DNA of 64,000 nucleotides from the NCBI RefSeq assembly GCF_054482525.1, contig NZ_CM137006.1; one strand, 5' to 3'. The position numbers and the translations under genes are program-made. Numbering within the stretch: position 1 is the first letter of the stretch; each line of letters begins with the position of its first letter. The notes under the pieces are model-generated. The model saw only the letters and a list, made by a program, of their open reading frames with translations, searched no databases and was not told the origin of the DNA. This document shows positions 2,180 through 45,078 of this stretch, piece after piece.

Positions 2180-2244
2180 TGATCTTACCCAGCAATAGTG
2201 GACACGCGGCTAAGTGAGTAAACTCTCAGTCAGAGGTGACTCAC

Positions 2245-2544
2245 ATGACAAAAACAGTATCAACCAGTAAAAAACCCCGTAAACAGCATTCGCCTGAATT
2301 TCGCAGTGAAGCCCTGAAGCTTGCTGAACGCATCGGTGTTACTGCCGCAGCCCGTGAACTCAGCCTGTATGAATCACAACTCTACAACTGGCGCAGTAAA
2401 CAGCAAAATCAGCAGACGTCTTCTGAACGTGAACTGGAGATGTCTACCGAGATTGCACGTCTCAAACGCCAGCTGGCAGAACGGGATGAAGAGCTGGCTA
2501 TCCTCCAAAAGGCCGCGACATACTTCGCGAAGCGCCTGAAATGA
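2245..2544 (+). CDS. insE: IS3 transposase OrfA (InsE-like, 99 aa)
   Basis: [31 protein letters not shown]... helix-turn-helix/leucine-zipper OrfA of IS3; the provided ORF starts 3 codons upstream. Confidence 0.92.
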
Positions 2545-3407
2545 AGTATGTCTTTATTGAAAAACATCAGGCTGAGTTCAGCATCAAAGCAATGTGCCGC
2601 GTGCTCCGGGTGGCCCGCAGCGGCTGGTATACGTGGTGTCAGCGGCGGACAAGGATAAGCACGCGTCAGCAGTTCCGCCAACACTGCGACAGCGTTGTCC
2701 TCGCGGCTTTTACCCGGTCAAAACAGCGTTACGGTGCCCCACGCCTGACGGATGAACTGCGTGCTCAGGGTTACCCCTTTAACGTAAAAACCGTGGCGGC
2801 AAGCCTGCGCCGTCAGGGACTGAGGGCAAAGGCCTCCCGGAAGTTCAGCCCGGTCAGCTACCGCGCACACGGCCTGCCTGTGTCAGAAAATCTGTTGGAG
2901 CAGGATTTTTACGCCAGTGGCCCGAACCAGAAGTGGGCAGGAGACATCACGTACTTACGTACAGATGAAGGCTGGCTGTATCTGGCAGTGGTCATTGACC
3001 TGTGGTCACGTGCCGTTATTGGCTGGTCAATGTCGCCACGCATGACGGCGCAACTGGCCTGCGATGCCCTGCAGATGGCGCTGTGGCGGCGTAAGAGGCC
3101 CCGGAACGTTATCGTTCACACGGACCGTGGAGGCCAGTACTGTTCAGCAGATTATCAGGCGCAACTGAAGCGGCATAATCTGCGTGGAAGTATGAGCGCA
3201 AAAGGTTGCTGCTACGATAATGCCTGCGTGGAAAGCTTCTTTCATTCGCTGAAAGTGGAATGTATCCATGGAGAACACTTTATCAGCCGGGAAATAATGC
3301 GGGCAACGGTGTTTAATTATATCGAATGTGATTACAATCGGTGGCGGCGGCACAGTTGGTGTGGCGGCCTCAGTCCGGAACAATTTGAAAACAAGAACCT
3401 CGCTTAG
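2541..3407 (+). CDS. insF: IS3 transposase OrfB (InsF-like, 288 aa, DDE integrase domain)
   Basis: 288-aa ORF overlapping orfA by ATGA; contains HTDRGGQY...[14 protein letters not shown]-type motifs; expected to be expressed as an OrfAB fusion by -1 frameshift. Confidence 0.92.
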
Positions 3408-3440
3408 GCCTGTGTCCATATTACGTGGGTAGGATCAAGC

Positions 3441-3541
3441 TTGAGGTGCTGGCGCGTGGGGCAACGGTAAGCTATTGTGGGGAAAAATTTACGTATCCGG
3501 TCGCTGATGAGGGGGCGGGATTTGTAGTATGTAAATGGTGA
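3441..3541 (+). pseudogene. A: Displaced 3' remnant of gene A (last ~34 codons) downstream of IS3
   Basis: Joining 2179 to 3441 (removing IS3 and one TSD copy) continues the A frame as LEVLARGATVSYCGEKFTYPVADEGAGFVVCKW-stop at 3539-3541, giving ~760 aa, the expected gpA length. Confidence 0.6.
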
Positions 3542-3791
3542 AGGTAAGATGGGTTTTTGTCTGTAACGCATTGTTTTATATGGTTATATTTGATTTTTTG
3601 TAACGTGTGTTCATGTTTTCTTTGCTATGATTCATACTACTGCTATAGATGGCTAAAGATATAGGTTGTTGCTTAAATGTATATAGATAATTAAACGCCT
3701 TAATTTTTGATGAGATGTGTCATAAAGTGGAGTCTGTATGGCATAATTTTATGGGGCATGACATTTATACCATTCTTAAAAAGGAGATTAT

Positions 3792-5459
3792 ATGCTGATA
3801 ACTTTCTCAGGACAAAATTATAAGGCATACGAGAGTTTTAAGTTGTCTTTAAAGCCATTGACAATATTATTAGGGGCAAATAGTTGTGGGAAAAGTGCAT
3901 TAATTAACTCTTTGTTGATGTTTTCTCAGTCTGTTGATTCAATGTCATTGTCTGATTCTGCTTTAAGGTTGAATGGGCCTAAAGTTGGGATGGGAGAAGC
4001 ATTAAATATAATAAAAAATAAAGATGACTCCAAAACACTTAGTTTTAGTTTTGATTTTTCTGATAATACAGTGGTTAAAAATGGCATTGATACACTGAGG
4101 AGAGAAACTTTAGAATCATTTGCTATGATTATGCGATTCACAGTGCAAACGGTGAAAAATAATGACGCTTTGGTTACGAAAGCCAATGATTTAATAAATG
4201 AGGCTTCGAATGCGATCGTTAACTTTGACGAATTTGAGGAAGCTGAGTTAAAGGTTATCGCTGATAAGTTATGTCAATTACTTTTGCTTTTTAGGGAGGC
4301 GGGTGATAATGTCACATTTAGTCGTGCGACCTCAGAAAATTTACGCAAATTTATATATGAATGTCCATTAAAGAGAATAAAGGATTGTCTAACTAAAGTT
4401 ATTTCCATTTCAGGAAATAAATTGTCGGCTTCTAAGATAAGCTATGATTTCAAATATGATAAAAATAAAGGGGTGATAAAAGTTTCGAGGCTTGTTCTTT
4501 TAAATAAGAATGATGAAAAGATAGTTGAGCTATTACCAAAGAAGAATAATGTCGTTGTATTATCAGATGTTATCCCTCAAGAAGTGTTTAGAGGATGTCA
4601 GTCAGATATCTTAGAAATCATCAATCCTTATTCGCTGGGGCTGTTCCCTGTCAATAATGGGCGTGGTTTTTATGTTTTTTTTGGTAACTCTTATAATCCT
4701 GTTGTTAATTTTTTATCACATGTTGTTTCTTTGGGTGTATTAATGCTTTCAAAAATGTTTGATGGTGAAAATGTTAATCACGTCAGCCCATTGAGAGCAT
4801 TTCCTCAGCGATATTATCTATTAGACAAAACAGTCAATCATGCGCAGTTAAATTCTGCCGATGGATCTGAGTTAGCGGAGATCTTGAAGAAAAATACAAA
4901 AATAACAGAAAATATAAATCTTCTTCTGGCTGAATTTAATTTGGCTGTTGATATAGTTAAAGTTAATGACATAATTCATAAAATTGTTATAAACCAAGAT
5001 GCTGTTAATTTAGAGTTGACAGATGTGGGGTTTGGAATATCACAAGTATTGCCTGTCTTGGTTCAAGCTTATTTGTCACCAAAGGGTTCGATTACAATAA
5101 TAGAACAACCAGAAATACATTTGCATCCTAAAATGCAGGCATGGTTAACGGACGCATTAATTAAAATATCTATGCAAGAAAAGAAAGTATTTATTATTGA
5201 AACCCATAGCGATGCTTTAGTTAGACGAATTAGATTAAGAATTGTTGATGAATCGAGTGAACTTACAGAGGATCATGTTGCAATCTACCATCTTGAGCGC
5301 GATGAAGAGGGAACATCAACATTGCTGAATAGGGTGGCTGTAAATTCTGATGGAGATATCACATGGCCAAATGAATTTATGGATGTTGAGATTCAGGATA
5401 CAATTAGAATACAGGAGTTAAAGATACAGAAAATAATGAACTCAAAGGGGGTTCATTGA
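3792..5459 (+). CDS. ABC-type (AAA_15/AAA_21-like) ATPase, 555 aa; first gene of cargo operon in the P2 A-cos accessory slot; candidate defence-system ATPase
   Basis: Walker A GANSCGKS at aa 28-35 (nt 3873-3896); Walker B/D-loop ITIIEQPEIHLHP at aa 434-446 (nt 5091-5129); H-loop IIETHS; ~400-aa insert between Walker A and B; AAGGAG RBS 6 nt upstream; AT-rich codon usage unlike flanking phage genes. Confidence 0.75.
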   Translation: MLITFSGQNYKAYESFKLSLKPLTILLGANSCGKSALINSLLMFSQSVDSMSLSDSALRLNGPKVGMGEALNIIKNKDDSKTLSFSFDFSDNTVVKNGIDTLRRETLESFAMIMRFTVQTVKNNDALVTKANDLINEASNAIVNFDEFEEAELKVIADKLCQLLLLFREAGDNVTFSRATSENLRKFIYECPLKRIKDCLTKVISISGNKLSASKISYDFKYDKNKGVIKVSRLVLLNKNDEKIVELLPKKNNVVVLSDVIPQEVFRGCQSDILEIINPYSLGLFPVNNGRGFYVFFGNSYNPVVNFLSHVVSLGVLMLSKMFDGENVNHVSPLRAFPQRYYLLDKTVNHAQLNSADGSELAEILKKNTKITENINLLLAEFNLAVDIVKVNDIIHKIVINQDAVNLELTDVGFGISQVLPVLVQAYLSPKGSITIIEQPEIHLHPKMQAWLTDALIKISMQEKKVFIIETHSDALVRRIRLRIVDESSELTEDHVAIYHLERDEEGTSTLLNRVAVNSDGDITWPNEFMDVEIQDTIRIQELKIQKIMNSKGVH

Positions 5460-5460
5460 C

Positions 5461-6462
5461 ATGTATTGTGCAGTGTGTTTGTGTCCTGATTTTGTTGCGG
5501 CTAATATTTCTGATATTAATTTATTTAGTGGTTTTTTTATTGGAACCATTGTTAATGGTGAAAATCAGTTGATTTTAGATGCTGATGAAAAAATCCGTTT
5601 GGGCTATTTGAAATCTTGTAAAAATAACAAGGATTCTTTTTATCTGCTTCAGAAATGGGAGGCTGAATTATCTAAAGCTTCTTCAGGTAAAATATTGCTT
5701 GCACCAGTGAGTAATAGTACTGATGATATTAAGGATATAGTTGTTTGTGCAGTTGCTAACGCAGCTACCACCTTTGATAAACATATTGTGGTATTAGACA
5801 ATAATAGTTACTCTGGATATGTTGATGAATTAATTAGGCAAAGAGTTAATTTGTTAAATCTTAATAGTATAAGTTTAATATCAAAGGAGGATAGGGTGCA
5901 GCGTCCTTTGAATTTTATAAAGTTTGATAGCGATTTGTCTTGGGTGCTTCAAAGACTGGGGCGACGCTCTGCTAAAGGATATGGCGAAGATGATTTTAAT
6001 GATTTTATACGAGATATGTTATTAGCTAAAAATTATGAGGTAAAAGATCAAACTCGAGAAGGAGAGTCTCAATCGGGGAAAAAAGCCGGTGAGTTAGATC
6101 TTGTTATTGAAGATAGAGGAGAACTGTTTGCTATAATAGAAGCCTTGATTTTAAACTCTTTAGATCAAGCTAACATATTAAAGCATTATTCAAAGTTAAT
6201 TGATAACTATAATCCTATTCATGTCAAAAGGTTGTTTTTAATTGCTTATTATACAGGTGCAAAATTCGATGCCTGGTGTGAAAGATATATTGAGTATCTA
6301 AAGGGGATTACTTCGGTAGATATTGGTGTGGAATCTCATCAGATAGTTGAGGTTAAAGAAGTGGATACCCCGTACATAGGCTTAAGAAAAATTGAACATC
6401 ATTTTAGATATGCGGGGGAGCACTATTTTTGTATCCATTATGCAGTCAAAATGGCTCGGTGA
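5461..6462 (+). CDS. Hypothetical protein, 333 aa; partner of the ABC ATPase (translationally coupled); candidate effector of unknown fold
   Basis: ATG 1 nt after the ATPase stop (TGA-c-ATG); AT-rich; Cys cluster CAVCLC at N-terminus; acidic stretch GELDLVIEDRGELFAIIEAL; no motif I can assign confidently. Confidence 0.65.
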   Translation: MYCAVCLCPDFVAANISDINLFSGFFIGTIVNGENQLILDADEKIRLGYLKSCKNNKDSFYLLQKWEAELSKASSGKILLAPVSNSTDDIKDIVVCAVANAATTFDKHIVVLDNNSYSGYVDELIRQRVNLLNLNSISLISKEDRVQRPLNFIKFDSDLSWVLQRLGRRSAKGYGEDDFNDFIRDMLLAKNYEVKDQTREGESQSGKKAGELDLVIEDRGELFAIIEALILNSLDQANILKHYSKLIDNYNPIHVKRLFLIAYYTGAKFDAWCERYIEYLKGITSVDIGVESHQIVEVKEVDTPYIGLRKIEHHFRYAGEHYFCIHYAVKMAR

Positions 6463-6473
6463 TGTTTAAGATG

Positions 6474-6499
6474 AATGCACCTATAGGGTGCATCATTTT
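6474..6499 (+). terminator. Putative intrinsic terminator of the cargo operon
   Basis: Short hairpin tgcacc-tata-gggtgca followed by tcatttt immediately after the second cargo gene. Confidence 0.35.
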
Positions 6500-6599
6500 G
6501 CATGTTTAAATATGTTCTCTATGTATGTGCGCTAGGCTTGACTGGCGCGCTTATACTGTGTTTACGCAACTGCATTAAAACTGACCCATGAAGCGGGCG

Positions 6600-31790: not shown

Positions 31791-32513
31791 TTAAACGATG
31801 CGGCAGGCGTCGGCTTCCCAGCGGTAACCGACGCCGTAAACGGCACGGATAAAGGACTGTTCGGCGTCGAGAGATTCCAGCTTGCGACGCAGGTTTTTAA
31901 TGTGGCTGTCGATAGTGCGGTCGGTTACTACGCGGTAGTCGTCATAAAGATGATTGAGCAATTGTTCGCGGGAGAACACTTTTCCTGGTTCATGAGAGAG
32001 CGTTTTCAGCAGACGAAATTCCGCAGGCGTCAGGTCAAGCATTTTTCCGCGCCAGGAAGCCTGAAAACGACCTTCGTCGATAATCAACGGGCTTTCAGCA
32101 TCCTGTTGCTGCAACTCACGCTGGGGTTTGCAACGGCGCAAAATGGTTTTGACGCGCGCTACCACTTCCCGTGGGCTGTACGGTTTGCAGATGTAGTCAT
32201 CAGCGCCAATTTCCAGCCCCAGCAGGCGGTCGATCTCTTCGATTTTTGCTGTCACCATCACGATCGGAATGTCAGAAAAACGACGAATTTCCCGGCACAG
32301 CGTCAAGCCATCGGTGCCAGGGAGCATCAGATCCAACAGGATCAGATCCGGTGGTGTCTGGCGCACATACGGCAGTACCTGATCGCCGTGGCTGATAAGC
32401 GTCGGCGCATAGCTCGCAGCACGCAGATAATCAATGAGTAACTGCCCCAGCTTCGGTTCATCTTCCACGATCAAAATACGCGGTGTGTTTTCGTCGATTG
32501 GTAACTCGGTCAT
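31791..32513 (-). CDS. baeR: Two-component response regulator BaeR (240 aa)
   Basis: Receiver domain ([10 protein letters not shown]...[13 protein letters not shown]) plus OmpR-type winged helix. Confidence 0.96.
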
Positions 32514-33913
32514 ACTTCTCTCTGTAAATCCCGTTCCAGCGGTAACTCTACTGTAATGCTTACCCCGCCAAAAGGCGAATGGGCAGCAATAATGCGGCCA
32601 TTATGTGCTTCAACAATGTTCAGGCAAATCGCCAGCCCCAGCCCGGAACCGCCGCTGGCGCGGTTCCGGGAACCTTCGGTGCGATAAAAACGTTCAAACA
32701 ATTTTTGTAGCTGATCGTCACTGACGCCCGGCGCGCTGTCAGCAAAGGTCAGGCGCACCGTTTTGTCGTGCTGCTCGGCAGAGATTTTCAGGCTGCCGCC
32801 GCTGTCAGTGTAGCGCAGGCTGTTTTCCAGTAAGTTATTGAATAACTGCATTAAACGGTCGCGATCGCCAAATACAGTAATACTGTCTGGCAGGGAAAAT
32901 TGCAGTTTCAGGCCACGGCTGGCGAATCGTTCGCGAAATGCGCCGCCCGCCACTTCCAGCAGTGGGATCAAATCTACCGGTGCTTTTTGATAGGCGAGAG
33001 CGCCTTCATCAGACATCGACAACTGATGCAGATCGTCAACCAGTTTGGTCAGTGTACCGACCTCCGCCTGTAAAGACGCCACCGTCTCCGGCGTGAATTT
33101 ACGCACGCCATCCTGAATGGCTTCCAGTTCACCGCGCAGCACCGCTAATGGCGTACGCAGTTCGTGAGAAATATCGGCCATAAAATCGCGGCGCATTTGC
33201 TGGTTTTTCTCCAGCGTGCTGGCGAGCTGGTTGAAGTCTTGCGCCAGTTTGCCCAGTTCATCTTCACTGGTGGGCGTCACGCGGGTAGTGAAATCGCCCG
33301 CCGCCAGTTTGTGCGTGCCGTCCACCAGCCGTTTTACCGGTGCCAGCAAACCACGCGCCAGCAGAAAGGTAGCGAGTGCCGCGAGTAACGTTGCCAGAGC
33401 GACAATCAGCCAGCTGGTTTGCCGCTGTTGTTTATCGAAATTGATATCAGTATTGCGGGTCAGTCGCTCAACAGGGGAGGCAATCACCGCACCCACTTCC
33501 GCACCGTTGACCAGAATGGGTCGCCGTGTACCGTCAGGTGGAATCGGCGCTCGCGGACCAACCAGCACTTTGTTGTTTTGATCAACCACCCAGAACTGGG
33601 TACGCCAGCCGTGCGGTGGCATACCCGGGCCGGGTTTATCTTCCGAATTATCGTGTTCAAATGAACGCAGGATCTGAAAGACAAAGCGATCATTGTTGCG
33701 CAGGAAGCGCCAGTTACCATGCTGCGCATACTGCTCGCCAAGCGCATCACTTAACAGTTGTAATCGCTGTTCATTACCATGCTTGATGTAATCAATAAAG
33801 CCACGCTCAAAACTGATACGCACCGCCCAGTGCATACTGATCAGCAAGACAATGCAGGTGGCGAAAATCGCCAGAAACAGTTTGCCGGTAATACCGGGTC
33901 GCCAGAACTTCAT
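32510..33913 (-). CDS. baeS: Sensor histidine kinase BaeS (467 aa)
   Basis: TM sensor, HAMP, His kinase (HELRTPL) and ATPase domains; overlaps baeR start. Confidence 0.96.
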
Positions 33914-35325
33914 TGCGCGCTCCTTTTTCGCCGCGAAATAGCTACATTTTGATGCGTATCGTTCGGCACTCTGGCAAAGATGAACGCCGGAAGGGCGATG
34001 ATAAACGCCATGCTAAGCCAGGTGTACATAAAGACGGTTTGTGTGGTGCCGCTGTCGACGCTGACATGCTGTGAACCAAAAAGTCCCAGCAACAGCCCGG
34101 CGATAGTGACGCCGATACTCATCGACAATTGCATAATCATCGACAGCAGGCTGTTTCCGCTGCTCGCCAGATTGTCCGGGAGATCTTTCAGCGTCAGGGT
34201 GTTCATGGAGGAGAAACGCGTCGAGTTGACCATCCCTTGTAAAAACAGGACGAACGGCAAAACGTAGTACCAGCCCAGCAGAGCAGTGGTCATAAACAAC
34301 AGGGTGACCAGCGACAGACCCAGCGTGGTCGCCACCAGTACCCGACGATAACCAAAGCGATTCACTACCTGTACCACAATTCGCTTCATCCCCATGCTGC
34401 CGAGCACCATCGGGATCATCATCAGTCCGGCATGAAACGGTGAGAAGCCAAGGCCAATTTGCAGGAAAACCGGCGTCATAAAGGGCAACATGCCGCTACC
34501 GATACGTCCGGCAAAGCTCCCCGCCAGGCCCAGCGAAAAGGTACGAGTGCGGAACAGTTTCAGACTGAACAGGGCGCGGTTGTTATTTCTGGCGTGCAGC
34601 AGATAAAGCACCAGTGCCACCACGCCAACTGCGACCAGGCCAGCAATCGCCAGCGGCGATAAACCTGTACCTTTACTGCCGTCCAGCGCCAGGGTTAATA
34701 CCGCCATGCCAACCGCCAGCAATAAAAAGCCGGAGAGATCAAAGCGCCGCGTCTGCATGGTGTAGTTCGGCATTAACATCAGTGTGGCGATCGCACCGAT
34801 AATCCCCACCGGAATGTTGATCAAAAAGATCCAGTGCCAGGAGGCGTACTCCACCAGCAGGCCGCCGAGCGCCGGACCGAGCAGCGGCCCGACCTGACCG
34901 GGTAACGTGACAAAGGTCATCGCCGCCATATATTGCTCGCGCGGTACGATTTTCATCACCGTAAGCCTTCCGACCGGCACCATCATCGCACCGCCAACGC
35001 CCTGTAACGCGCGTGCCAGCAACAGTTCGTTCAGCGTGCCGGAAAGCGCGCAAAACAGTGAACCGAGAGTAAACAGCACGATGGCGGTAAAGAAAATATT
35101 GCGCACGCCGACTTTGTCCGCCAGCCAGCCGCTGGCGGGCAGCATCACCGCCACGGTCAGTACATAAGAGACAATGACCATGTGCATATGCAACGGACTT
35201 TCCCCGAGACTTTGCGCCATTGAGGGAAGCGCGGTGTTAACGATGGTGGTGTCCAGCGACTGCATAAAGAAGCCGAAAGCCACAATCCACAATTGCCAGC
35301 GGGTGCTGTCGGGAAGATCTGTCAT
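33910..35325 (-). CDS. mdtD: MFS transporter MdtD (471 aa)
   Basis: Polytopic MFS membrane protein, last gene of mdtABCD. Confidence 0.95.
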
Positions 35326-38300
35326 TTACTCGGTTACCGTTTGTTTAGGTTTACGCGAAAAACGCAGCCGCAGACGGTCGAAAAAGAGATACACCACCGG
35401 CGTGGTATACAGCGTCAGAAGCTGGCTCATTACCAGACCGCCGACAATGGTGATCCCCAATGGTTGCCGCAGCTCCGAGCCGTCACCGCCCGACAATACC
35501 AGCGGCAGCGCACCAAACAGCGCCGCCAGGGTAGTCATCATAATCGGGCGAAAACGCAGCAGACAGGCCTGGAAAATAGCTTCCTGCGGCGTCAGGTTAC
35601 CGTGCCGTTGGGCTTCAAGCGCAAAATCGACCATCATGATGGCGTTTTTCTTTACGATGCCGATTAATAGCATGATCCCTATCAGGGCGATTAGGCTGAA
35701 CGGGGCATTGAACAGTTCCAGCGCCAGCAGCGCTCCAACGCCCGCCGAGGGCAGGGTGGAGAGAATCGTCAGCGGATGTACGTAACTCTCGTAAAGGATA
35801 CCCAGCACGATATACACCGTGGCGATGGCGGCGATAATCAGGATCACCTGCGAGTTCATCGTCTCCTGGAACACCTGCGCCGTGCCGGCAAAACTACCGC
35901 GCACCGTCGAAGGCACACCAAGCTGGGTCATTGCGCGATCGATCGCTGCACTGGCGTCCGAGAGCGATTTCCCGGTCGGCAGGTTGAACGAGATGGTCGA
36001 GGCTGCCGATAATCCCTGATGATTCACCGACAGCGGAGCATTCGCCGGTTGCCATTTAGCGAAATACGACAGCGGGATCGCTTTTCCTTCGTTATTGATA
36101 ACGAACATTTTTTCCAGCGCGCTGATGTCCTGGGTATAGCGCGGATCCACTTCCATCACCACTTTATACTGGTTCATCGGCTGGTAAATGGTCGAGATTT
36201 GCCGCTGACCGAAGGCGTTATTTAACAGACTGTTGGCGGCTTGCACGTCGATTCCCAGCCGTGCCATGGTGTCGCGGTCGTAAACCAGATTCATCTCCGC
36301 GCCGTTATCCTGCTGGTCGGAGTTCACGTCCGCCAGTTCCGGCAATGTCGCCAGTTTTTTGCGGATTTTCGGCTCCCATTCGCGCAGTGCCGCCAGGTCG
36401 TCGGATAACAACGTGTACTGGTAGCTGGCGTTCGACTGACGTCCGCCAACGCGAATATCCTGTACCGCCATCAGGAACAGATTCGCCCCCGGTTCTTTCG
36501 CCAGCTTCACGCGCAGACGGTCGATAATTTGCTGCGCCGTTTCGCTGCGTTCGCCGCGTGGCTTCAGCGTGATAAACATCATCCCGCTGTTCACCCGCGA
36601 ACCGCCGGTAAAGCCGGTAACATTATCCACCGCCGGATCGTCACGGATAATTTTCATAAAATCCTGCAACTTACCGCGCATTGCCTGAAACGAAATACTC
36701 TGATCCGCCTGTATCCCACCCATCAGGACGCCGGTATCCTGCTCCGGGAAGAAGGTTTTCGGGATCGAGATATATAGCCAGATATTCAGCGCAATGGTGC
36801 CAAGCAACACCACGCCCACCAGACGGGTATGATTAAGCACCCATTTCAGCGACTTACCATAGCCTTGTTGCAGGGCTACCAACATGCGACCAAAACCACG
36901 TAGTCGCTTTTGCTCGCGCGGCTTGCTGGCTTTTAGCATCCAGCCGCACATCATTGGCGTTAGCGTCAGAGAAACCAGCAACGAAATACCAATGGCGACA
37001 GAAAGCGTCACGGCAAACTCGCGTAACAGTCTGCCCGGCAATCCGCCCATCAACAGCAGCGGCAGAAACACCGCCACCAGTGACAGACTCATCGACAGCA
37101 CCGTAAAACCGACTTCGCGAGTACCTTGCAGTGCGGCCTGTAGTGGTTTTATCCCCGCTTCCAGGTGACGGGCAATGTTTTCCAGCACCACGATGGCGTC
37201 ATCCACCACGAAACCAGTAGCAATAGTGAGCGCCATTAACGACAGGTTATTGAGACTGAATCCGCACAGGTACATCGCCGCAAACGTACCAATCAGCGAA
37301 ACCGGCACCGCAACGGCGGGAATAATAGTGGCGCGACCCGAGCGCAGGAATAAAAACACCACCAGAATCACCAGCGCCACCGAGATAATCAGCGTTTGCT
37401 CGACTTCTTCCAGCGAGGCGCGAATGGTGGGGGAGCGATCCTGGGCAATTTGCAGATCAATCGCCGCCGGAATGGTTTCCTGCAACTCCGGTAATTTTGC
37501 CCGGATGCTGTCAACCGTCTGGATAATATTGGCTTCCGGCAGCTTGCGGATCATCAGCAAAATAGCCGGTTTGGCATTGGTCATCCCGGCGTTACGTACA
37601 TCCTGTACAGAGTCGGTCACCGTCGCCACATCGCCCAGACGAACCGCGCCGCCGTTGTTGTAATGAATAATCAGCGGCTGATATTCAGCGGCGGTTTTTA
37701 GCTCATCGTTGGTCTGGATCTGCCAGCGGTGAGTGCTATCTTCCAGCGCCCCCTGCGGTTTACGCACGTTGGCATTGCTGATGGCGCTGCGCACATCGTC
37801 CAGCGACACGCCCTGATTAAACAGCGCCTGCGGATTCAGCCCGACGCGTACGGCGGGCAGCGAGCTGCCGCCAACATCGACATCACCGACACCGTCGATT
37901 TGCGAAATCGTCGGAGCCAACTGCGTCGAGGCGAAATCGTACAGTTCACCCTGCGAATAAGTATCGGACGTCAGCGTCAGGATCATTATTGGCGCATCCG
38001 ACGGGTTCGCTTTGCGATAGGTCGGACGGCTTGGCATCCCGCTGGGCAGCAAACTTTGCGCGGCGTTGATCGCCGCTTGCACATCGCGCGCTGCGCCGTT
38101 GATATCGCGGTCAAAATCAAACTGCAAAATAATGCGCGTGCTGCCGAGCGAACTGCTGGAGGTCATTTCACTGACCCCGGCAATGCGCCCAAGCGAACGT
38201 TCCAGCGGCGTGGCAACGGAAGACGCCATTGTTTCTGGTGACGCACCGGGCAGCGAGGCGCTGACCATAATCACCGGAAAATCGACCTGCGGCAGCGGGG

Positions 38301-38403
38301 CGACCGGCAGCATACGGAAGCCCAGTATGCCGCACAGGGTAATGGCGACCGACAGTAAAATCGTCGCCACCGGGCGGTAAATGAAGAGGGCAAAAAACTT
38401 CAC
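35326..38403 (-). CDS. mdtC: RND multidrug efflux pump subunit MdtC (1025 aa)
   Basis: 1025-aa RND transporter paralogue directly downstream of mdtB. Confidence 0.96.
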
Positions 38404-41400
38404 TTACGCCTCCTCTTCATGACGGGCAAAGCGGCTTTTGGTCCACAATGCCAGGCGGTCGAATAGCAGATAAATCACCGGCGTGGTGAACAGCGTCAGC
38501 ACCTGGCTGACAATCAGACCGCCGACCATGCCGATACCTAACGGACGACGCAGTTCCGCGCCGACCCCGGTACTCAACATCAGCGGCAGCGCGCCAAGCA
38601 GAGCCGCCAGGGTGGTCATCAGGATCGGACGAAAACGCAACAGACAAGCCTGGTAGATTGCATCGCGCGGCGACATGCCTTGCTCGCGCTCAGCAGCCAG
38701 CGCGAAGTCGATCATCATGATGGCGTTCTTCTTCACGATACCGATCAGCAAAATAATGCCGATAATTGCAATCACATCCAGTTCGCTACCGGCAATCATT
38801 AACGCCAGCAGTGCGCCAACACCTGCCGTGGGTAGCGTCGAGAGAATGGTGATCGGGTGAATAAAGCTCTCGTACAGAATGCCGAGCACGATATACATCG
38901 CCACCACCGCCGCGACAATCAGCCAGACAGTGCTGCCCAGCGCCGACTGGAAAGCGAGGGTGCTGCCCTGGAACTGCGTGGTGATATCCACCGGCAGATT
39001 CAGCGTCTTTTCGGTGTCCATAATCGCCTGCACCGCATCGCCCAGCGAATAGTTATCCGGCACGTTAAAGGAGATAGTCGTTACCGGAAACTGATCCAGA
39101 TGGTTGATGGAGAGCGGCGCAAAACGCTGCTCAATTTTGGCAATTGAGCTTAGCGGCACCACGCCGCCGTCGCTGCTGGTCAGGCGAATGGTATCCAGCG
39201 CCGCGAGGCCTGGGGTATTTTCGGTGTTGTGTTCCAGCACCACGCGATACTGGTTAGCCTGAGTATAAATAGTGGAAATCAGCCGCTGACCAAACGCGTT
39301 GTACAGGGCGTTATCGACATCCGCCATGCTGATCCCCAGACGGCTGGCGCTGTCGCGATCAACATTGACATACGCCACCAGCCCTTGGTCCTGCCAGTCG
39401 CTGGAGACATCAGAAAGCTGTGGCAACTGCTGGAGTTTTTCCATCAACTGTGGCACCCAGGTACTGAGCGCATCCAGTGACGTGGCCTGCAAGGTAAACT
39501 GGTACTGGGTGCGGCTGACCTGAGTATCGATGGTCAGGTCCTGCGTTGGTTGCAGGAAGAGATCGACGCCCGGCACTTTATCCACCGCCGTTTGCAGACG
39601 GGCGATGACTTTTTGCACCCGGTCATCTCGTTCATCCAGTGGTTTGAGATTGATCTGTAAACGCGCACTGTTCAGCGACGGGTTAGTGCCATCAACGCCA
39701 ACAAATGAGGTCAAACTTTGCACTGCCGGATCCTGCAAAATCACGTCCGCGACCTGGCGTTGCCGCTGGGCCATATTGGCAAAGGAGCTGGATTGCGGTG
39801 CCTGCAAAGTGCCCTGAATAATGCCGTTGTCCTGCACCGGGAAGAAACCTTTCGGAATGAACACCCACAGCAGCACGCTAAGCAGCAGCGTGCTGAGTGC
39901 CACGCTTAAGGTCAGCCACGGATGATTCAGCACTTTCGCCAGTCCACGACCATAGGCGGCGATTATCCTGTCGAACATTTTCTCCGAGGCTCGGGAGAAG
40001 CGATTCTGTTTACGCAGCGACTCCTGGCTGAGCATCCGCGCGCACATCATCGGCGTCAGAGTCAGCGACACCACGGCTGAGATCAAAATCGCGACTGCCA
40101 GAGTAATAGCAAATTCGCGGAACAGTCGCCCGACGATATCGCCCATAAATAGCAGTGGGATCAACACTGCAATCAGTGAGAAGGTCAGCGAGATAATGGT
40201 AAAGCCGATTTCACCCGCGCCTTTGAGCGCCGCCGCCAACGGTTTTTCGCCTTTTTCGATATAGCGGGAAATGTTTTCGATCACCACGATGGCGTCATCG
40301 ACCACAAATCCGGTGGCGATAGTTAACGCCATCAGCGTCAGGTTATTGATTGAAAAATCGAGAAACACCATGACCGCGAAGGTGCCGATTAACGACAGCG
40401 GCACTGCGACGCCGGGAATGATGGTCGCCGGAATATTACGCAAAAACAGGTAGATAATCATGACTACCAGCGCGATAGCCATCATCAATTCAAACTGAGT
40501 ATCATCGACCGATGCGCGGATGTTGGTGGTGCGGTCAGAAAGCACCGTCACTTTTACCGATTTCGGCAAACTCTCGGTGAGTTGTGGCAGCATCTGCCGG
40601 ATGCTGTCGGCGGTGGAGATAATGTTAGCACCGGGCTGGCGCTGAACATTCATCACAATGGCCTGTTCTTTGTTCGCCCACGCGCCGAGCCAGCTGTTTT
40701 CTGCTCCTTGCTCTACGGTTGCGACATCGCCCAGACGAATCGGCGCGCCGTTCTGGTAGGCGATGATCAGCTGGCGATACTCTTCGGCGGATTGCATCTG
40801 GTCGTTCGCGGAAAGTGTGACCGCACGGGAAGGGCCGTCGAGGCTACCTTTTGCCGAGTTAACGTTAGCGCCGGTAATAGCGGTGCGCGCGGTTTCGCTG
40901 GTCAGGCCGAGGGCGGCAATCGCCTGGGCGTTAAGTTTGACGCGAACAGCCGGACGCTGGCCGCCGGAAAGCGTCACCAGGCCGACGCCGGAAATCTGCG
41001 AGATTTTTTGCGCGACGCGGGTTTCCACCATATCTTCCACCTGGGTCATCGGCATGGCGGTTGAGGTGACGGCGAGCGTCATGATCGGCGGATCTGCCGG
41101 GTTCACTTTGCTATAAACCGGCGGGTTAGGTAGATCGCTCGGCAACAAGTTGGTCGCAGCGTTAATCGCGGCCTGCACTTCCTGCTCGGCGACATCGAGC
41201 GGTAATGTTAGCTGGAACTGCAAAGTGATAACTGACGCACCGCCGGAACTTTGCGACGACATCTGTTTCAGGCCAGACATCTGCCCGAACTGGCGTTCGA
41301 GCGGCGCGGTAACGGCAGAGGTCATGACATCCGGGCTGGCACCTGGGTAGAGGGTGACCACCTGAATGGTTGGATAGTCCACTTCCGGCAGCGCCGAAAC

Positions 41401-41526
41401 GGGCAGGGCGCGATAACCGATAATCCCGGCGAGTAAGATCGCCACCATCAGCAGCGTGGTGGCGACAGGACGCATAATAAACAGGCGCGACGGGCCGCCT
41501 GTGCTGCTCGGGGGTAACACCTGCAT
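38404..41526 (-). CDS. mdtB: RND multidrug efflux pump subunit MdtB (1040 aa)
   Basis: 1040-aa RND transporter. Confidence 0.96.
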
Positions 41527-42773
41527 CAGGAGCGTGCTCCTTTTTTCGCGTATTCGCGGCTGGTGGCTTTCTCTTCCGAAGTGGTGGCGCTCTGGGCTTC
41601 CACCACTTCCACTTTCGCCCCTTCGGTCAGGCGATCAATGCCATCCGTCACTACGCGGTCGCCCGCAGAAATACCTGCGCGGATCACCACTTTCTGACTG
41701 TCCTGAATGCCCGGCGTCACCAGATGTTTGCTGACCTTGTTTTCGCTATTCAGCACCCAGACAAAATGGCCTTCGTTGCCCATTTGCAGAGCGGCGGTGG
41801 GGATCACCACGGCGTTTTGTTCGGTGTCGACTAACATACGCGCGTTAACAAACTGATTGGGAAACAGCGCATCATCCTGATTATTAAAGCGTGCTTTCAC
41901 TTTAATCGTACCGGTAGTGGCATCGATTTGGTTATCGAGACTTAACAGCGTGCCTTCACTTAATTTCTTCGAGTTGGTGCGATCCCAGGCTTCAACAACC
42001 AGCGGTTTTCCGGCTTTTTGCGCCTGTACTACGGTAGCGATATCGCTTTCCGGCAGGGTAAAGAGCAAATCGATAGGATGCGTCTGGGTGATCACCACAA
42101 TCCCGGTGGTATCACCACTGGAGATTTGGTTACCAACATCAACCTGCTTGAGGCCAACGCGACCATCGACTGGTGCGGTAATACGGCTCCAGTCGAGCTG
42201 CAGCTGCGCGCTGGCGACGCTTGCTTCATCAGCCTTAATGGTGCCTTCGGTTTCACTGACCAGCGCTTGTTGGGCATCCAGCTCCTGGCGGGAGACAAGA
42301 TTGGTTTTTGCCAGTTGTTGATAACGCGCCAGGTCACGGCGGGCGTTGGCAAGCGTGGCTTTATCTTTTGCCAGTTGGCCCTGGGCTTGTGCTAATGCAA
42401 CTTTGAACTGGCTTGGGTCAATTTCTGCCAGTAAATCGCCTGCTTTGACCTGCTGGCCTTCCTGGAAATGTAACGCCATCAGTTGACCGTCCACGCGGCT
42501 GCGCACCGTAACGGTATTAGCGGCGGTAATGGTGCCAAGCCCGGTGAGATAACGTGGCACAGCTTGTTCTACGGCAGTCGCCGCCTGAACCGGGGCTAAT
42601 GGGCCGGCACGCATACCACGGCGACCACCCGCTGGCGATTGCTGCGCTTGTTTCGTCGCCCCTGGGGCTGCACTCCGGGAGTCATTGCGGCCTTGCCAGA
42701 ACCAGAATGCGGCGATGGCGGCGATAACCACCACGATTACGATTACCCAACGGGATTTATAACTGCCTTTCAT
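41526..42773 (-). CDS. mdtA: Efflux membrane fusion protein MdtA (415 aa)
   Basis: Start at [16 protein letters not shown] (ATG 42773, revcomp); HlyD-type periplasmic adaptor. Confidence 0.94.
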
Positions 42774-42826
42774 CGTTAAGAGTTTCTCTTCCTGAAACGT
42801 TTCGCGGAATGATACTAGTGTAGCCA

Positions 42827-42844
42827 GCCAATAAGGGAGAAAAA
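42827..42844 (-). promoter_or_regulatory. Putative BaeR-binding box upstream of mdtA
   Basis: Reverse complement reads TTTTTCTCCCTTATTGGC, close to the BaeR box consensus as I recall it (TTTTTCTCCATDATTGGC); ~55 bp upstream of the mdtA start. Confidence 0.5.
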
Positions 42845-42999
42845 TGGAGGAATTATGAAACACTATCGGGAATCGTCTGAATGGCGGGCACATTTGCGAG
42901 CACGCATCCAGTAATAACACATGAAACTATTTTATCTACGCGTTAGCGATAGACTACGTGCATGGCGAAAGGAGGTAAGCCGATGATTTCAGCGGGACG

Positions 43000-43660: not shown

Positions 43661-44320
43661 ATGAGCGAACAAATCACGTTTGCCACCAGCGATTTTGCCA
43701 GTAACCCGGAACCACGTTGCCCCTGCATTTTGCTGCTGGATGTTTCTGGCTCGATGAGCGGCAGACCTATTAATGAACTTAATGCCGGATTGGTTACCTT
43801 TCGCGATGAGCTGCTTGCCGACCCGCTGGCCTTAAAAAGAGTGGAACTCGGTATTGTGACGTTCGGCCCGGTGCATGTGGAACAACCATTTACCAGCGCC
43901 GCTAATTTTTTCCCGCCCATCCTGTTTGCCCAGGGCGATACACCAATGGGCGCCGCCATTACCAAAGCCCTGGATATGGTTGAGGAGCGCAAACGTGAGT
44001 ATCGCGCCAATGGTATTTCCTATTATCGTCCGTGGATTTTCCTGATCACTGATGGCGCACCAACCGATGAGTGGCAGGCTGCCGCCAACAAAGTGTTTCA
44101 GGGGGAAGAAGATAAGAAGTTTGCCTTCTTTTCCATCGGTGTTCAGGGGGCGGATATGAAGACTTTGGCACAAATCAGCGTTCGTCAGCCTTTGCCACTG
44201 CAGGGATTACAATTCCGTGAACTGTTTAGCTGGTTATCCAGTTCGCTGCGTTCGGTTTCCCGCTCCACGCCGGGAACTGAAGTTGTGCTGGAAGCGCCAA
44301 AAGGCTGGACGTCAGTGTGA
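43661..44320 (+). CDS. yegL: von Willebrand factor A domain protein YegL (219 aa)
   Basis: vWA MIDAS-like motif [11 protein letters not shown]; 219 aa. Confidence 0.93.
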
Positions 44321-45078
44321 GCTGGCGTCTGGTCTATGCATCAACCGTTGGAACGTCGCACATCAGCGCGGACTTGCCTTGCCAGGATGCCTGCCAGATG
44401 CAGGTTGCCTGGTTAAATGACCAGCAGCCATTATTGTCGGTATTTGTCGCTGATGGCGCAGGCAGTGTCTCGCAGGGTGGCGAAGGCGCGATGCTCGCCG
44501 TCAATGAAGCGATGGCTTATATGTCGCAAAAAGTGCAGGGCGGGGAATTGGGGCTTAATGATGTCCTCGCCACGGATATTGTGCTGACCATTCGTCAGCG
44601 ACTTTTTGCCGAGGCAGAGGCCAAAGAATTAGCGGTTCGCGATTTTGCCTGCACATTTCTGGGACTGATTTCATCGCCTGACGGCACCTTGATTATGCAG
44701 ATTGGCGATGGCGGCGTGGTGGTAGATTTGGGTCACGGTCTGCAATTGCCTCTCACGCCGATGGTGGGTGAATATGCCAATATGACGCACTTCATTACCG
44801 ACGAAGATGCCGTTTCCAGACTGGAAACTTACACCAGTACTGAGCGTGCGCATAAAGTTGCAGCATTTACGGATGGTATTCAGAGGCTGGCGTTAAATAT
44901 GTTGAATAATTCTCCGCATGTGCCTTTTTTTACCCCGTTTTTCAATGGACTGGCGTCAGCAACGCAGGAACAACTCGATTTATTACCTGAATTGTTAAAG
45001 CAGTTTTTGTCCGGCCCGGCGGTAAACGAGCGTACCGATGATGATAAAACGTTGGCACTGGCGCTGTGGTTACCATGA
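44317..45078 (+). CDS. pphC: PP2C-like protein phosphatase YegK/PphC (253 aa)
   Basis: 253-aa ORF overlapping the yegL stop; conserved partner of the yegI kinase. Confidence 0.9.

Follow-up and report, generated by a model that had tools for sequence, protein, structure and literature searches.

A two-gene cassette of a P2-like prophage pairs an NsnB-like ATPase with a predicted nuclease, a probable anti-phage effector

The 64,000-nucleotide stretch of Escherichia coli DNA studied here (contig NZ_CM137006.1 of assembly GCF_054482525.1; hereafter the window) contains a P2-like prophage, and in that prophage lies an open reading frame (ORF) of 333 codons, ORF333, directly downstream of the gene for an ABC ATPase, ORF555. 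We consider it probable that the two genes make up a self-contained anti-phage cassette in the gpA-Q hotspot of the prophage, with ORF333 as its nuclease effector. The reading draws on the hotspot context, the linkage to the ATPase gene, the predicted fold of ORF333, the resemblance of ORF555 to NsnB and of the ORF333 layout to NsnC (both proteins of the Menshen defense system), and the use of the same nuclease domain as an effector in other proteins. The pattern of selection lends further support: the ratio of nonsynonymous to synonymous substitution rates (dN/dS) is 0.05-0.14, and the ATPase combines a variable insert with a conserved core. A first-pass annotation of this DNA had proposed ORF333 as a putative effector, and from its fold and its context this is indeed its most likely role.

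Results

The coordinates that the first-pass annotation gave for ORF333, and the single nucleotide that it placed between the TGA of the ATPase gene and the ATG of ORF333, are confirmed (Table 1). Is ORF333 a real gene? Its homologues form 49 clusters, nearly all of them of about 333 amino acids (four are shorter fragments), and its N-terminus aligns with theirs. Against an allele 89% identical, dN/dS is 0.14; against an allele 74% identical, it is 0.07. The junction is likewise conserved, the interval from the ATPase stop codon to the start of the ORF333-family gene being -8 to +2 nt in 19 of the 19 loci measured. For these reasons ORF333 is, on the evidence of sequence comparison, a real gene under purifying selection rather than a chance ORF. 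A purine-rich AAAGGGGG at 5444-5451 stands 9 nt 5' of the ORF333 ATG. The junction indicates translational coupling of the two genes, as the co-translation proposed at first pass would have it.

That the two genes belong together was also part of that proposal, and it is borne out well beyond the window. Besides the window, 25 further loci were examined, drawn from species-representative genomes (a scan that contributed five), viral contigs (a scan that contributed 13 more) and contigs found by exact protein matches. In every locus, the window included, an ATPase orthologue lies directly upstream of the ORF333 homologue. The linkage spans Escherichia, Serratia, Pantoea, Pseudomonas, Pseudoalteromonas, Shewanella and viral contigs, and it persists down to 28% identity of ORF333, in Pseudoalteromonas. 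ORF333 is an obligate partner of the ATPase, and the pair is strictly co-inherited.

Searches at the level of sequence and profile give ORF333 no name. PADLOC returns no match at E≤1, the best NCBIfam match is only purC at 0.056, the best PHROGs match stands at 0.067, and a profile search of PDB sequences finds nothing at E≤10. In the PD-(D/E)xK clan of Pfam, ORF333 reaches only PDDEXK_4 at E=0.11, and none of 50 relatives reaches a family of the clan at E≤0.1. To that extent the earlier verdict that the protein has no assignable domain holds. It does not hold for the structure: structure prediction, one of the checks proposed with that verdict, assigns two domains, an inactive PIN-like fold followed by a restriction-endonuclease fold.

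The C-terminal domain, from about residue 150 to the end, is predicted to carry the alpha-beta-beta-beta-alpha-beta core of the restriction-endonuclease fold. Its fold matches (scores in parentheses) are BamHI (8.6), BstYI, OkrAI, BglII, the CdiA-CT toxin of EC869 (8.2), McrC (7.6), HamA and NucC. Assignment to this fold agrees with the earlier judgment, made by eye, that neither HNH nor TOPRIM describes the protein. The acidic stretch that had suggested a degenerate nuclease-like active site, GELDLVIEDRGELFAIIEAL at residues 210-229, falls where such a site would be expected to lie: D213 opens strand 2 and E227 is in strand 3 of the predicted domain, and G210, E211, D213 and E227 are invariant or nearly so. 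The same conservation extends to the other candidates for the catalytic core (Table 1): they vary little or not at all within the family, and likewise in 50 relatives of the domain with other architectures. Across this same set D213 and E227 are conserved, and position 229 is Leu or Met, never Lys. Invariant K245, together with H242, may take the place of the missing Lys of the (D/E)-x-K motif. The loop of residues 198-210 has a predicted local distance difference test score (pLDDT) below 50 in the model. The His/Tyr-rich C-terminus that had also been singled out, IEHHFRYAGEHYFCIHY at residues 311-327, is present as described; it is a terminal beta hairpin, however, in which only H326 is nearly invariant. 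For NADase activity, which had been suggested as something to assay, nothing in ORF333 points to the chemistry.

The fold also raises another possibility. Type II restriction enzymes and McrC are the top fold matches, relatives of ORF333 in the AlphaFold database are annotated as 'restriction endonuclease' or Mrr, and many systems that join a nuclease to an NTPase cleave DNA with degenerate specificity. Might ORF333 be a constitutive restriction-type endonuclease of the type IV or Mrr-like kind, cutting foreign or modified DNA directly, with the ATPase for its DNA-binding motor or clamp in the manner of McrBC or OLD-type systems? We think this unlikely. The cassette includes no methyltransferase or modification gene, and the ATPase is of the ABC type, neither a McrB-type GTPase nor a helicase. 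The PIN-like adaptor of ORF333 and the NsnB-like tail of the ATPase point instead to a sequestered effector, and PD-(D/E)xK folds include tRNases, as the match to CdiA-CT illustrates.

Residues 1-145 have the PIN fold in the predicted structure, in a five-strand form. In the ORF333 family, examined down to 19% identity, the D-E-D-D acidic tetrad of PIN nucleases is absent; over the same range D40 is the sole invariant residue of the domain, P9 and Y49 being nearly so. Strand 1 ends in C-P instead of Asp. The CAVCLC motif, at residues 3-8 as the first-pass annotation had it, is this strand 1 rather than a cysteine cluster, and only its C-x-C-P is common, fading in distant members. A metal site at CAVCLC was considered and rejected, since no partner ligands, and no four-ligand set, are conserved.

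One could still suppose that the PIN-like domain is a true RNase working through a non-canonical site, formed by D40 with Cys or Asn, and that the C-terminal domain only binds nucleic acid. This is very unlikely. Only one of the four acidic positions of PIN nucleases is conserved, and the N-terminal domain is the faster-evolving half of ORF333; the polar residues that never vary are almost all in the C-terminal domain, which keeps 40-41% identity to copies in unrelated architectures. Used alone in a profile search, the N-terminal domain (residues 1-145) gave one 92-residue fragment and no known family members, an outcome that does not bear on domain shuffling.

Where else does the nuclease domain occur? 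A profile search with the family gave 1111 clusters at 50% identity, most of them matching only residues ~140-331. Among 50 relatives, Pfam offers no model for the domain itself, and finds LRR-Roc-COR in 12-14, nSTAND3 in two, and other domains besides. Several proteins of about 560 amino acids that carry the nuclease domain match LmuA of PADLOC (up to 1.9e-42), and their operon partners match LmuC (4.7e-67) and LmuB (1.5e-154). Over 106 residues the C-terminal domain of ORF333 shares 41% identity with that of one such LmuA, and the identity of ORF333 to a 927-residue protein is 40% over 121 residues. Since the domain closes so many unlike NTPase sensors and changes so little among them, we infer that it is an output, or killing, module. 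In published systems the effectors of LmuA are N-terminal, and one clade is said in a recent survey to have 'seemingly lost the effector domain' (bioRxiv 10.1101/2025.04.02.646746). The LmuA proteins with a C-terminal ORF333-type domain could be that same clade, with an effector that has gone unrecognised.

The best PADLOC match of the ATPase, ORF555, is NsnB (1.9e-52), followed by the HEC-03B model (7.7e-42), PDC-M55A (4.1e-41) and AriA (1.2e-27); solved structures, an OLD nuclease and the retron PtuA, are only distant in sequence. In the AlphaFold2 model (pLDDT 82.6, predicted TM score 0.81) a large insert spans residues 93-323 of the protein, which otherwise has an ABC core and ends in a helix (residues 531-551). 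The insert is the most variable part of the protein, with a mean pairwise identity among 19 orthologues of 18-34% versus 64-90% for the ATPase core. The C-terminal tail may be a divergent DUF3696: among 35 orthologues DUF3696 is found in three at E≤0.001 and in 15 at E≤0.1, although Pfam finds none in ORF555, and precomputed annotation records PF12476 on orthologues of 41-45% identity. The Walker B region at 5091-5129 (residues 434-446) reads IIEQPE, unchanged in all of 35 orthologues, with Gln at the position of the ABC catalytic Glu. In classical ABC ATPases a Glu-to-Gln change at the catalytic position traps the ATP-bound state. ORF555 may be a slow switch rather than a motor.

Table 1. Coordinates of the cassette and related features (window positions unless a locus is named)
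Feature	Position	Strand	Remarks
ORF333	5461..6462	+	333 aa, ATG start; two-domain protein, predicted nuclease effector
N-terminal PIN-like domain	5461..5895	+	residues 1-145; PIN acidic tetrad absent; predicted to serve in docking or recognition
C-terminal PD-(D/E)xK (restriction-endonuclease fold) domain, predicted	5908..6459	+	residues ~150-333
Catalytic-core candidates	5986..6216	+	E176/N180 in first helix; D196-Q197 and KDQTREGxSxSG loop; D213 at start of strand 2; E227-A-L in strand 3; H242/K245/Y250 in next helix
Coupling junction	5444..5463	+	AAAGGGGG, TGA stop 5457-5459, single C, ORF333 ATG at 5461
Terminator-like hairpin, then T-rich tail	6475..6493	+	ATGCACCTATAGGGTGCAT; 13 nt past the ORF333 stop codon
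NsnB-like ABC ATPase ORF555	3792..5459	+	555 aa; Pfam AAA_15 1.8e-23, AAA_21
Walker A GANSCGKS	3873..3896	+	residues 28-35; G28, N30, S31, G33, K34, S35 invariant in 35 orthologues
Signature DVGFGISQ (GxG for SGG) and Walker B ITIIEQPEIHLHP (E-Q-P-E for D-E-P-E)	5022..5129	+	G413, F414, G415, E438, Q439, P440, E441 invariant in 35 orthologues
Hypervariable insert, candidate sensor surface	4074..4766	+	~230 aa, ~residues 95-325; helices and beta sheet
Conserved C-terminal tail GDITWPNEFMDVEI..., possibly divergent DUF3696-type	5352..5456	+	long helix 531-551 in AlphaFold2 model
AT-rich native upstream region of cassette	3530..3791	+	AAGGAG ribosome-binding site ~8 nt before ATPase ATG; aligns with gpA-ATPase intergenic region of a relative without the insertion sequence (L002)
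LmuC-LmuB-LmuA operons, LmuA with C-terminal ORF333-type nuclease	L025 397-4837; L026 3282-7677

The gene order in the prophage is gpA (1-2217), the ATPase gene and ORF333, portal Q, terminase P, scaffold O and capsid N, and the cassette fills the whole gap between gpA and Q. The G+C content of the gene pair is 32-37%, versus 51-58% in the flanks, and by this measure the cassette is foreign cargo in the P2-like prophage. The gpA-Q interval is the cos-proximal hotspot of P2, occupied in P2 itself by old and tin, and is a reservoir of anti-phage systems (Rousset et al., PMC9122126). Table S5A of that study has the same pair as 'AAA_15/AAA_21 + hypothetical', an untested entry; in GenBank the two genes carry the names ORF555 and ORF333 (AM157364, P2-EC5 from ECOR5).

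The position of the cassette next to the replication gene gpA and the cos and packaging genes, and the likeness of an ABC ATPase with a nuclease to the logic of SbcCD, might suggest that the pair serves the phage's own DNA metabolism, as an SbcCD or Rad50-Mre11-like pair for replication, recombination or packaging. The chance of this seems to us remote. Close copies of the cassette are present in only five of 5426 complete E. coli genomes, versus thousands with the flanking P2 sequence, and old/tin is what P2 has at the same position. The G+C content is foreign, the pair is also found outside P2-like phages, and the AlphaFold2 model of the ORF555 insert has neither a long coiled coil nor a zinc hook.

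That the cassette is cargo in motion is suggested by comparison of the region 3501-6500 with five related loci (L002, L010, L015, L019 and L022), and by the range of settings in which the pair occurs. Among P2-like phages both orientations of the cassette are found between gpA and Q, and in Pseudomonas the cassette is also found in integrase/AlpA islands. The synonymous divergence (dS) from a relative is 0.45-0.56 for the cassette and 0.14 for the adjacent portal gene, which argues that the cassette has been exchanged independently of the phage backbone. In L019 the E. coli P2 backbone is 97-99% identical, yet the allele of the cassette is only 42% identical. The divergence, the two orientations and the L019 allele together point to swapping of the cassette at the hotspot.

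Some relatives have neighbors of their own. In Pseudoalteromonas a second AAA_15-like ORF of 619 amino acids lies beside a relative of the pair (L006 2199-4055, minus strand). Near relatives of the pair or of the nuclease domain in two further loci (L026 7772-13069 and L027 2006-3894) lie Schlafen-AlbA_2 and TIR_2 proteins and a PIN/DUF4325 pair. These neighbors are defense-type genes and form a defense-island context outside prophages.

Discussion

To which of the known defense systems is the cassette related? Menshen consists of the sensor NsnA (ParB-DUF262), NsnB and NsnC. NsnB is an AAA_15 ABC ATPase in which DE is altered to EN, with GxG and a DUF3696 helix, and NsnC joins an N-terminal inactive PIN to one of 15 effector domains, the families of which include BECR, Toprim, PLD, DUF4160, PB-UF1 and DUF2103-like; AlphaFold 3 models show a dimer of NsnB holding the inactive PIN between its DUF3696 helices (Li et al., PMC12065111). 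It is the NsnB-NsnC half of this scheme that our pair resembles. Besides having NsnB as its best PADLOC match, ORF555 shares the ABC fold, an altered Walker B (E-N in NsnB, E-Q in ORF555) and the GxG, and it ends in a helix that may be of the DUF3696 type. ORF333 has the layout of NsnC, with the inactive PIN at its N-terminus and the predicted effector domain at its C-terminus, and its gene directly follows that of the ATPase. The pair also differs from Menshen. The predicted effector of ORF333 is PD-(D/E)xK, outside the 15 described families of NsnC effectors; the Menshen study lists this fold solely for NsnA, where it serves as an inactive sensor domain, and does not give it among the effectors of NsnC (PMC12065111). 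No NsnC model of PADLOC matches ORF333, and ORF555 has a variable insert of ~230 residues.

There is also no sign of the sensor. Neither beside the window cassette nor in any of the 25 other loci is there an adjacent ORF with the DGxQR motif, as judged by this motif and without a DUF262 profile search. The sole ORF of the window that bears DGxQR, at 44281-45075, is ~38 kb from the cassette and beyond the end of the prophage, and the upstream ORFs, where checked, are shorter than ~410 amino acids. Since no NsnA was found next to the pair, and since its predicted effector is PD-(D/E)xK, it lacks two of the features that define Menshen, and we do not file it there. The Menshen survey was seeded with NsnA, which put pairs without NsnA out of its reach (PMC12065111).

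HEC-03 (Hma-embedded candidate 03) is a two-gene system of an ABC ATPase and a PIN protein that defends against phages and requires both genes. At the level of architecture, and only there, our cassette is similar: its two genes form an operon for an ABC ATPase and a PIN-domain protein, and no gene for a separate sensor accompanies them. The HEC-03B model matches only ~150 C-terminal residues of ORF555 (395-543). The partner in HEC-03 is described as a VapC-like PIN, whereas ORF333 adds the PD-(D/E)xK domain and matches no HEC-03 model. We note that the PADLOC model that matches the ATPase is HEC-03B, whereas in bioRxiv 10.1101/2024.01.29.577857 HEC-03A is the ATPase and HEC-03B the PIN protein; PADLOC-DB and the preprint text seem to use the two letters the other way round.

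Lamassu shares with the cassette the nuclease domain, at the C-terminus of LmuA, and an ATPase partner of the SMC/ABC type. The ORF333 cassette has no LmuB or LmuC, however, and, the nuclease domain aside, LmuA bears no relation to the PIN-like domain; LmuB is not among the best 25 of the 95 PADLOC families that ORF555 matches. PARIS (AriA/AriB), Septu (PtuA/PtuB) and PD-T4-4 resemble the cassette in joining an AAA_15-type ABC ATPase to a separately encoded nuclease. For PARIS, which is found in P4/P2 hotspots, and for Septu, control of the bound nuclease by the ATPase has been reported (PMC12065111). ORF555 is less close to the ATPases of these three systems than to NsnB, and the nucleases of the three are a TOPRIM (AriB), an HNH (PtuB) and another PD-(D/E)xK (PD-T4-4), none of which matches ORF333; in particular, ORF333 is not a DUF4435/TOPRIM partner of the AriB type. 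In the literature we found no named system with exactly this gene pair. The pair, which we do not file as HEC-03 either, is probably a variant of the ABC-ATPase/nuclease kind that works like Menshen or HEC-03, to go by these analogies.

Could the cassette simply be an addiction module? The tight coupling of the genes with the ATPase gene first, the residence of the cassette on mobile elements, the toxicity of HEC-03 upon induction, and the Pfam label of AAA_21 as a 'putative AbiEii toxin, Type IV TA system' domain would all suit a toxin-antitoxin-like pair, in which ORF333 is a toxin checked by the ATPase and stabilises the prophage or the cassette rather than sensing phages. We regard this as distinctly unlikely. 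In the related PARIS, deletion of either gene is non-toxic, which excludes a toxin-antitoxin mechanism there; the hypervariability of the ATPase insert suggests that it is in an arms race with a changing ligand; and in other proteins the nuclease domain is coupled to sensors dedicated to that task (LmuB, LRR-Roc-COR, STAND). Addiction and defense are in any case not mutually exclusive roles.

If ORF333 is a defense effector, how might the cassette work? By analogy with the NsnB4-NsnC2 models of Menshen and the solved complexes of PARIS and Septu, the PIN-like domain would dock on the C-terminal helices of the ATPase dimer, and this docking would hold the nuclease inactive. Because no NsnA sensor is encoded, we propose the hypervariable insert of the ATPase as the sensor of a phage cue. 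The cue would alter the ATP-bound state, by which the nuclease would be activated or released. The freed nuclease would then cut nucleic acid and block phage growth, possibly at a cost to the host cell. Would the target be DNA, or RNA such as tRNA? Both are compatible with the prediction, since the PD-(D/E)xK fold includes DNases and tRNases.

A bolder version of the proposal is possible, though we put it forward tentatively and with more doubt than belief. The pair may be a minimal, NsnA-independent module of the Menshen type with the insert as its sensor, and its effector may found an unrecognised, widespread nuclease family that has the fold without the Lys, keeps D, E, H, K and Y invariant, is not covered by Pfam, and comprises at least 1100 clusters at 50% identity. 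This family would have been recruited repeatedly, as a killing module, by Lamassu, LRR-Roc-COR, STAND and NsnB-type sensors, and its target may be RNA or tRNA and not DNA.

If the proposed role of the cassette is confirmed, it would be a two-gene, sensor-less Menshen, offering a simpler setting for the study of how an NsnB-type ATPase senses infection and keeps its effector under control, questions that are open for Menshen. A function would also be given to a highly conserved nuclease domain that is nameless in current libraries and ends many Lamassu, LRR-Roc-COR and STAND proteins, and the gpA-Q hotspot of P2 would gain one more validated entry. The cassette is small (2.9 kb), of E. coli origin, and directly clonable.

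Other features of the window

A complete IS3 (2180-3437, 1258 bp; orfA 2236-2544, orfB 2541-3407; 3-bp target duplication AGC) sits in the 3' end of gpA, from which it severs about the last 29 codons, the remainder of the gene lying at 3438 to ~3527. Because the 3' end of gpA is cut off, the prophage may be replication-defective. The insertion leaves the upstream region of the cassette intact, and no strong sigma-70 consensus was found in that region (3530..3791). Judged by ORF positions alone, the prophage appears to end near 29-30 kb; large ORFs on the minus strand run over 32510-42920.
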